From NCBI GenBank assembly GCA_964510585.1, contig CAZECW010000126.1, positions 1 through 32,000 of the forward strand: a DNA stretch of 32,000 nucleotides. The letters are read 5' to 3'. Positions 23,944-24,282 of the stretch are shown piece after piece. The notes below the pieces were generated by a model. That model saw nothing but the letters and a program-made list of their open reading frames with translations. It was not told the DNA's origin and did no database searches. Made by a program: the position numbers and the translations under genes. How positions within the stretch are numbered: the stretch's first letter is position 1; every line of letters starts with the position of its first letter. This DNA is from an uncultured archaeon (GTDB lineage Archaea; Asgardarchaeota; Jordiarchaeia; Jordiarchaeales; Jordiarchaeaceae).

Positions 23944-24110
23944 TGGTAGCGGGATGTGGATTTGAACCACAGATCTCAGGGTTATGAGCCGACCGCCCTT
24001 GCGGTATTCTCCTTAAGGTCTGCGGGATCTCCTGAGTGGGCTTCCTCTTCTCTCGAAGAGTTCATCTACCTTGGACTTGGACTCTCGATTGAGAATCCAT
24101 CTATCCCGCT
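23944..24110 (-). tRNA. Initiator tRNA-Met(CAT), introns at 10/11 (24071-24100), 15/16 (24036-24065), 29/30 (23991-24019), CCA encoded
   Basis: A1-T72 and three G-C pairs in the anticodon stem (CAGGG/CCCTG) after splicing. BHB helices GGAT/GTCC, GGGT/GCCC, CCGC/GCGG. Spliced length 78 nt. Confidence 0.9.
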
Positions 24111-24282
24111 AACAAGCGCACTCTTCCCGCTACGTTTTAGGTCAAGGAATCTTATACTTAGAGCTTTATTTAAATCTATCGTTACTTTTTGTATTCTGAA
24201 AAAAACTCTTTTGTCTTTCCTCCAGCATCAATTTTTCAATGAAGCCAAGCTATTTGAAGTTAGAGGAGGTAAAAAGGAGTAT

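Follow-up and report, generated by a model that had tools for sequence, protein, structure and literature searches.

Why should a tRNA gene carry, a few nucleotides upstream of its own start, a second copy of its 5' acceptor strand? The question is raised by the initiator tRNA (iMet) gene in the 32,000-nt stretch of DNA analysed here (the window), which is part of a 3.78-Mb metagenome-assembled genome (named G000). The comparison covered five congeners from the same Freyarchaeia genus (G001 to G005), among which G005 is complete, and two relatives from the same order (G008 and G009). The coordinates in Supplementary Data 4 of the published complete Freyarchaeia genome (PMC11291895) fall exactly on the tRNA starts of G005, and G005 was therefore identified as that genome. 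Our analysis suggests, with a probability of about 0.6, that the leader copy acts as a surrogate 5' acceptor strand, which would hold the 3' end of the pre-tRNA so that the first intron can be excised.

Anatomy of the initiator tRNA locus

Read on the minus strand, the locus runs TTTAAATA (24174–24167)...AAAACGT-AGCGGGA (24131–24125)-AGAGTGCGCTTGTT-AGCGGGA (24110–24104)-TAG. The original prediction held that the 5' end of the tRNA is repeated 21 nt upstream, and this is what the minus strand contains: TAGCGGGA at 24132–24125 recurs at 24111–24104, with a period of 21 nt. The downstream heptamer AGCGGGA is the true 5' end of the iMet. Its partner TCCCGCT (23954–23948) is followed by A73 and the encoded CCA, and the downstream copy is succeeded by U8-A9-G10, a sequence shared with the initiator tRNA of G009, whose gene has no introns. 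By chance, about 6e-4 exact 8-mer repeats per tRNA are expected in the 40 nt upstream; the repeat exceeds chance and is confirmed as a real, non-random feature of the locus.

Comparison with the intron-less iMet genes of G009 and G008 and with the five congeners resolves the gene into four exons (nt 1–10, 11–15, 16–29 and 30–76) and three BHB introns at 10/11, 15/16 and 29/30. The features of the locus are as follows.

24167–24174, minus strand: TATA box TTTAAATA with a BRE-like upstream flank
24125–24133, minus strand: leader copy GTAGCGGGA, for which 9 bp are possible with the 3' end TCCCGCT-A-C
24111–24124, minus strand: spacer AGAGTGCGCTTGTT, conserved, its last bases in the outer BHB helix of the MFE fold
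24101–24110, minus strand: exon 1, nt 1–10 (AGCGGGATAG); nt 5–8 (24106–24103) are the exon half of the BHB central helix
24071–24100, minus strand: intron 1 at 10/11, 30 nt; GTCC (24076–24073) is the intron half of the central helix
24066–24070, minus strand: exon 2, nt 11–15 (GGTAG), from comparison with the intron-less iMet of G009
24036–24065, minus strand: intron 2 at 15/16, 30 nt; central helix GGGT/GCCC and hairpin CTCTTC/GAAGAG
24020–24035, minus strand: exon 3, nt 16–29, from comparison with the congeners and G009
23991–24019, minus strand: intron 3 at 29/30, 29 nt; BHB CCGC/GCGG with a 4-bp intron-side outer helix (H2)
23944–23990, minus strand: exon 4, nt 30–76, with the anticodon CAT, the T arm, TCCCGCT (23954–23948), A73 and the encoded CCA
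19612–20208, plus strand: EndA paralogue (splicing endonuclease, about 200 aa; PF01974, 79.9 bits)

The central helix of intron 2 is whole only after G10 and G11 have been joined, and the loops of its hairpin vary among the congeners. Intron 3 is missing from G002 and G005, which fixes its boundaries; its removal yields the anticodon stem CAGGG/CCCTG with three basal G:C pairs (GGG/CCC). Together with the A1:U72 pair of the acceptor stem (AGCGGGA/TCCCGCT) and the anticodon CAU in a CTCATAA loop, this identifies the product as an initiator tRNA. The spliced molecule has 75 nt plus CCA, and each of its arms agrees with the corresponding arm of the intron-less iMet in G009 and G008. ARAGORN does not detect the gene, and the Rfam match covers the 3' half only, below threshold (21.8 bits, E = 2.9).

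The EndA gene of the window lies 4 kb from the iMet gene, and a second EndA paralogue of about 200 aa is encoded on another contig (C157) of the same genome, which suggests an enzyme of the heteromeric, broad-specificity type. The RNase P RNA (RF00373) was not found in the G000 assembly. It was found at 165–173 bits in G003, G004 and G005, and as three congeners have the gene, that of G000 is probably unassembled, the assembly being incomplete. The presence of RNase P RNA in the genus and of two EndA paralogues in G000 was counted in favour of the surrogate-strand reading.

The 10/11 intron competes with the acceptor stem

In the BHB geometry that we used, the central helix joins exon nt X-5..X-2 to intron nt n-5..n-2, and each 3-nt bulge is cut between its second and third base; this geometry reproduces every unambiguous junction of the iMet gene. 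At the 10/11 junction, GGAT (nt 5–8) pairs with GTCC, leaving the bulges A9-G10-A and A-A-G11, and the helix persists in the congeners, its intron half reading either GTCC or, with a wobble, GTCT. A flanking helix is provided by the 9-bp stem of the intron, which a single bulged A separates from the central helix. Judged from sequence and predicted fold, the 10/11 insert fits an archaeal BHB intron, with a 4-bp central helix, at least one flanking helix and a canonical tRNA after excision.

The MFE fold also contains an imperfect exon-side helix between leader -2..+3 and nt 11–15, where nt 1, nt 3 and the last two leader bases are paired as the outer BHB helix. In this fold the whole true 5' strand is engaged by BHB pairing, and the BHB and the acceptor stem are therefore mutually exclusive. 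The earlier claim that the 10/11 BHB needs nt 5–8 and so competes with the acceptor stem is thus borne out by the GGAT–GTCC helix. A spacer hairpin, CGCT-TGTT-AGCG, was considered as the outer BHB helix and rejected: the sequence permits it (with a wobble, TGCT, in G003), but the MFE fold does not use it and no compensatory change accompanies it.

Conservation of the leader copy and position of the promoter

The leader copy is present in all six genomes of the genus. The invariant columns across these genomes amount to 18/20 for the TATA box with its flank, 11/28 for the leader between the TATA box and the copy, 9/9 for the copy with its preceding GT, 12/15 for the spacer, 10/10 for exon 1 and 17/31 for intron 1. 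The copy and the spacer show exon-like conservation, in contrast to the drift of the flanking leader and of the loops within the introns. The GT ahead of the copy pairs with A73 and C74. The acceptor sequences show no variation within the genus, so a comparison of compensatory changes within any one gene is precluded.

The conserved spacer may serve a separate function. Its GAGTG and GCTT (within 24112–24123) pair in the MFE fold with the 3' boundary of intron 2 (AAGC and CACTC, within 24034–24043), a pairing that would block the second BHB until intron 1 is gone. In G005 this pairing is weakened, without compensation.

As for the promoter, the original prediction named the TATA-like TCTAAGTA (24162–24155). 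That element is not kept in G005, whereas TTTAAATA (24174–24167) is, and the conserved TTTAAATA is the more likely promoter. Archaeal TATA boxes usually lie about 30 nt upstream of the start; from this spacing alone, transcription from TTTAAATA is predicted to begin at about 24144, some 13 nt ahead of the copy. Under either promoter, the copy is predicted to lie in the transcript. The TATA-to-tRNA distances in G005 are too noisy to calibrate leader length, and a simple TATA score is unusable in that genome because the leaders are too AT-rich.

A 200-nt contig from a sediment metatranscriptome, 95–99% alike, spans 23919–24117; it is unspliced, has no joints and reaches 25 nt into the trailer. 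Its other end lies 7 nt upstream of +1 and, at a depth of 5.6, is not informative on the 5' end of the transcript, and DNA carry-over may account for the contig. A second run yielded only the 3' half, from a relative. The 95–99% likeness indicates that a close relative lives in that sediment.

Folding models of the leader helix

The effect of the leader on the 10/11 helix and its counterparts in two other tRNAs (tRNA-Phe and tRNA-Thr, described below) was modelled with ViennaRNA ensemble probabilities, in which the helix was constrained and the ensemble energies were compared. The probabilities of the BHB helix are as follows.

iMet, G000: natural leader 0.96; leader deleted 0.0001; copy replaced by poly-A 0.011
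Phe, G000: natural leader 0.99; leader deleted 0.010; copy replaced by poly-A 0.335
Thr, G000: natural leader 0.90; leader deleted 0.0000; copy replaced by poly-A 0.002
iMet, G005: natural leader 0.67; leader deleted 0.0000; copy replaced by poly-A 0.004
Phe, G005: natural leader 0.99; leader deleted 0.0018; copy replaced by poly-A 0.102

For the iMet of G000, the helix between the leader copy and the 3' strand has a probability of 0.87, and once the leader is deleted the true acceptor stem forms at 0.29–0.98 across the models. In the iMet model of G002 the 3' strand is sequestered, yet the GGAT/GTCT helix is not predicted. Shuffling the 7-nt copy gave scattered results and is a poor control, as shuffled copies rich in G/C often remain able to pair with the 3' strand; cleaner controls are deletion and replacement by poly-A.

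Five pre-tRNAs with introns at 15/16 or 16/17 served as a control. Four of them fold their BHB at probabilities of 0.79–0.87 with or without the leader, and in three of these four the acceptor stem is also closed (P at least 0.98); the fourth encodes no CCA, so that its acceptor stem was not indexed correctly, and the intron pick of the fifth looked wrong. Since introns in the D loop fold their BHB without the leader and beside a closed stem, the models indicate that help from the leader is required only where the intron invades the acceptor strand.

Leader copies in other tRNA genes

When the whole genome was searched for 5' acceptor heptamers repeated exactly ahead of a matching 3' strand plus NCCA, a second case emerged in the same window, tRNA-Phe(GAA).

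28282–28290, plus strand: tRNA-Phe(GAA) leader copy TGCCGTCGT; the true start is at 28312, and the gene has a 9/10 intron

The central helix of this intron uses nt 4–7 (GTCG with CGAC) beside an intron stem of 6 bp. All five genomes that contain the gene retain the copy, TGCCGTCG, with a spacer of variable length (period 24 or 29 nt). The upstream unit matches the true exon plus intron at 20/29 positions, with 9/9 in the copy and 11/20 in the remainder. This pattern suggests that the copy was probably born by tandem duplication after the intron was already present, in which case the intron would once have been spliced without it, a point against the surrogate-strand reading. The identity of the exon-like part, set against the decay of the rest, argues that the copy is under selection. 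The gene has two more introns, at 28367–28397 (about 31/32, beside the anticodon stem) and 28420–28449 (53/54); they are near-identical (ATGCTGCCAGAATC.CTGACAGAAG.CGA), both follow GGA/TGG, and they co-vary between species, which looks like an intron duplication inside one gene.

The third case is tRNA-Thr(CGU) on contig C140, in which a 22-nt intron follows U8 (8/9) and the central helix uses nt 3–6. Its leader TGGAGCCTTCGG, identical in 6/6 genomes, can pair with CCGGGGCTCCA (CCGGGGC-T-CCA) over 11 bp with one bulged base. The complementarity of the Thr-CGU and iMet leaders extends into the discriminator and CCA, and therefore a plain duplication of the 5' end is inadequate as an explanation. 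The acceptor sequences of iMet, Phe and Thr-CGU are thus unrelated to one another, and the leader copy of each of the three genes matches the acceptor of that gene. Outside the genus, the tRNA-Thr(CGU) of G009 has neither the 8/9 intron nor the copy, and the copy is also missing from the iMet genes of G008 and G009, which lack introns.

One exception was found. The tRNA-Tyr(GUA) of G000 (contig C4, 43145–43159, minus strand) carries a 15-nt tandem duplication, CCCGCAGTAACTTTA-CCCGCAGTAACTCAG, and has no early intron. Its leader copy measures 12 nt in G000 and G001, and the duplication is found only in these two genomes, being absent from G002–G005; we take it to be young. It shows a route by which copies arise, and that copies are not strictly confined to genes with early introns.

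Distribution of copies and early introns

The pairing capacity of leaders was surveyed as the best RNA.duplexfold pairing that the 11-nt 3' end of a tRNA makes with its 60-nt leader, in incomplete sets of 38 tRNAs from G005 (36 listed ones with a clear acceptor, plus iMet and Phe) and 22 from G000. In G005, Thr-CGU, iMet and Phe score -18.3, -17.6 and -14.9 kcal/mol, the next best score is -8.9, and a copy is absent from the 35 others; only 0.14% of non-self pairs of leader and 3' end reach -14.9. The same three stand out in G000, besides tRNA-Tyr, which scores -22.5 kcal/mol.

Among the 36 listed G005 tRNAs, only Thr-CGU has an intron before position 14; the others begin with a contiguous acceptor, U8 and D arm. 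An ungapped 7/7 copy occurs in 0/36. For G000, a strict scan for BHB introns at positions 6–12 (encoded CCA, a T-loop-like motif, U8, G10, A14 and an intron stem of at least 5 bp) gave 14 matches against 6 in the reversed-genome control, and only iMet, Phe and Thr-CGU were tRNA-like. A first, brute-force scan for early introns had been uninformative, with 2815 matches against 2239 in the reversed genome.

The expected restriction of leader duplicates to tRNAs with introns of this kind is not strict: iMet, Phe and Thr-CGU are the only outliers among the 38 tRNAs of G005, in comparison groups partly defined after the pattern had been seen, and tRNA-Tyr of G000 and G001 departs from it. The iMet leader copy was not found outside the genus in 400 Asgard genomes searched with the pattern AGCGGGRN{8,38}AGCGGGRT, which is too short, control counts being similar in size; the 24 outside-genus matches inspected are not iMet.

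A proposed surrogate acceptor strand and the alternatives

The conservation of the copy, its association with introns at 8/9, 9/10 and 10/11, the ensemble models and the control with D-loop introns together support the reading of the leader copy as a surrogate acceptor strand. The proposed sequence of events is as follows. The splicing endonuclease would recognise the 10/11 intron only if nt 5–8 are paired with the intron, and the true 5' strand would thus lie outside the acceptor stem at the moment of splicing. The leader copy GUAGCGGGA, transcribed first, would pair with the 3' end UCCCGCUAC as this emerges, so that the 4-bp BHB helix would be safe from displacement by the 3' strand. Once splicing is done, the true 5' strand would become the partner of the 3' strand, and RNase P would cut at +1, discarding the copy and the spacer. 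The original prediction that the copy pairs with the 3' acceptor strand and frees nt 5–8 is in this way supported by comparison and modelling. We infer that the copy is transcribed and matters for splicing in the cell, and that it is later displaced and removed by RNase P.

The release step deserves separate attention. With all introns of the iMet removed in silico, the leader helix (9 bp) is still favoured over the true acceptor stem (7 bp), with probabilities of 0.87 versus 0.003, and secondary-structure energies therefore leave the release unexplained. It must then come from tertiary folding of the tRNA, from proteins, or from an irreversible cut by which RNase P draws off a minor population.

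The same observation is consistent with a different function of the leader helix, in which its main job would lie elsewhere, in masking the CCA and acceptor end from RNase P, aminoacylation or exonucleases, or in ordering the processing, and its help to the BHB would be a side effect. The pairing spans the discriminator and CCA in Thr (TGGA with TCCA) and partly in iMet, and the pairing of the spacer with the 3' boundary of intron 2 (GAGTG with CACTC, GCTT with AAGC) could delay the second splice. However, nearly all tRNAs of the genus have introns, and the copy occurs only with introns at 8–10, a restriction that general masking does not predict; the weakened, uncompensated pairing between spacer and intron 2 in G005 also speaks against this reading. 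We regard this explanation as unlikely, though the best placed of the alternatives.

Somewhat less probable still is that the copy is a neutral relic, left behind when the 5' exon and the first part of the intron were duplicated in tandem, and not yet decayed. That such duplications arise is shown by tRNA-Tyr, with its 15-nt repeat in G000 and G001 only and no early intron, and the upstream unit of Phe still resembles exon plus intron (20/29). Against decay in progress, the iMet copy is invariant (9/9) over the same divergence at which the neighbouring leader keeps 11/28 columns, and the Phe copy remains like its parent (9/9) in a unit otherwise decayed to 11/20. A relic also does not account for the complementarity of Thr and iMet that reaches the discriminator and CCA, or for the fact that the three independent genes with a copy are exactly the three with acceptor-invading introns.

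That the upstream copy is the real 5' exon, followed by a fourth intron of 21 nt or an alternative 5' splice choice, would suit the earlier TATA assignment, which puts the transcription start at the copy, and the fact that removal of any 21-nt register within the repeat yields the same mature sequence; it is nevertheless very improbable, since, as originally predicted, no register fits a BHB intron (the 10 registers give 0–3 of 4 central-helix pairs, the best one, with 3/4, having no outer helix), both helix halves inside the repeat would be the same sequence and would need a self-complementarity that was not found, the Phe copy in G001, G003 and G004 precedes C, so that its own splice site would give C and not U at position 8, and the Thr copy has an extra base. 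Two further candidates were rejected. A split or permuted arrangement with a leader–trailer BHB does not fit, as the partner of the leader is the mature 3' strand, trailer sequences are not conserved and there is no BHB at the junction; an att-site duplication by an integrating element does not fit a repeat of the 5' strand 21 nt away with no element between the copies.

Implications and comparison with known systems

At tRNA positions 8–11, the splice signal of an intron and the acceptor stem compete for the same bases, and a spare leader strand would solve this conflict with a small device of 7–12 nt. If the surrogate-strand reading is true, it gives a new job to pre-tRNA leaders, which are usually regarded as disposable, and helps to explain how Asgard tRNA genes tolerate so many introns. 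A wider proposal is that leader-encoded surrogate acceptor strands form a general, undescribed class of cis-acting pre-tRNA elements, strand-exchange switches that let BHB introns settle at the junction of acceptor and D arm and that small tandem duplications would have created repeatedly, in several archaeal phyla; we advance it tentatively, at slightly less than even odds. For annotation, tRNA finders miss such genes, and the 5' end could be set on the wrong copy. The published table of 38 tRNAs (PMC11291895, Supplementary Data 4) is without iMet and Phe, and His, Cys and Glu are also unlisted; the two genes lie in G005 at 1729286–1729446 (iMet) and 1547576–1547793 (Phe).

The organisms are the same as those in which intron-rich tRNAs of Freyarchaeia and Atabeyarchaeia have been described, with introns that are often several per gene and at non-canonical positions (PMC11291895; bioRxiv 10.64898/2026.10.13.758758); introns occur in 92–95% of the tRNA genes (PMC11291895). 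The word 'leader' is absent from both PMC11291895 and the October 2026 preprint on Asgard tRNA introns (bioRxiv 10.64898/2026.10.13.758758), and a review of archaeal tRNA introns (PMC4090602) uses it only for split and permuted tRNAs. A full-text literature search (pre-tRNA, BHB, acceptor stem, leader) returned nothing closer, and a leader helper strand is described in no paper found.

The introns themselves resemble the non-canonical archaeal BHB introns (Marck and Grosjean 2003; Sugahara 2008; PMC4090602) in the 4-bp central helix, the 3-nt bulges, one or more predicted flanking helices and the restoration of a canonical tRNA upon excision. That literature treats the intron and its exon context and does not mention a leader element that frees an exon strand. 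Split and permuted tRNA genes (Randau 2005; Soma 2007; reviewed in PMC4090602) are alike in that sequence outside the mature tRNA makes the fold ready for the endonuclease. There, the extra sequences pair with each other, form the BHB and are removed by EndA; the iMet leader, unlike them, would pair with a mature strand, forms no BHB and would need another enzyme for its removal.

Temporary placeholder pairings occur in other RNAs, namely between the pre-rRNA leader or U3 and 18S/16S rRNA, and as the alternative helices of attenuators and riboswitches. We know of no placeholder pairing in tRNA splicing. The proposed leader switch would share with these systems two mutually exclusive helices and a temporary partner that holds a strand until an earlier step is done, while the molecules and enzymes differ.
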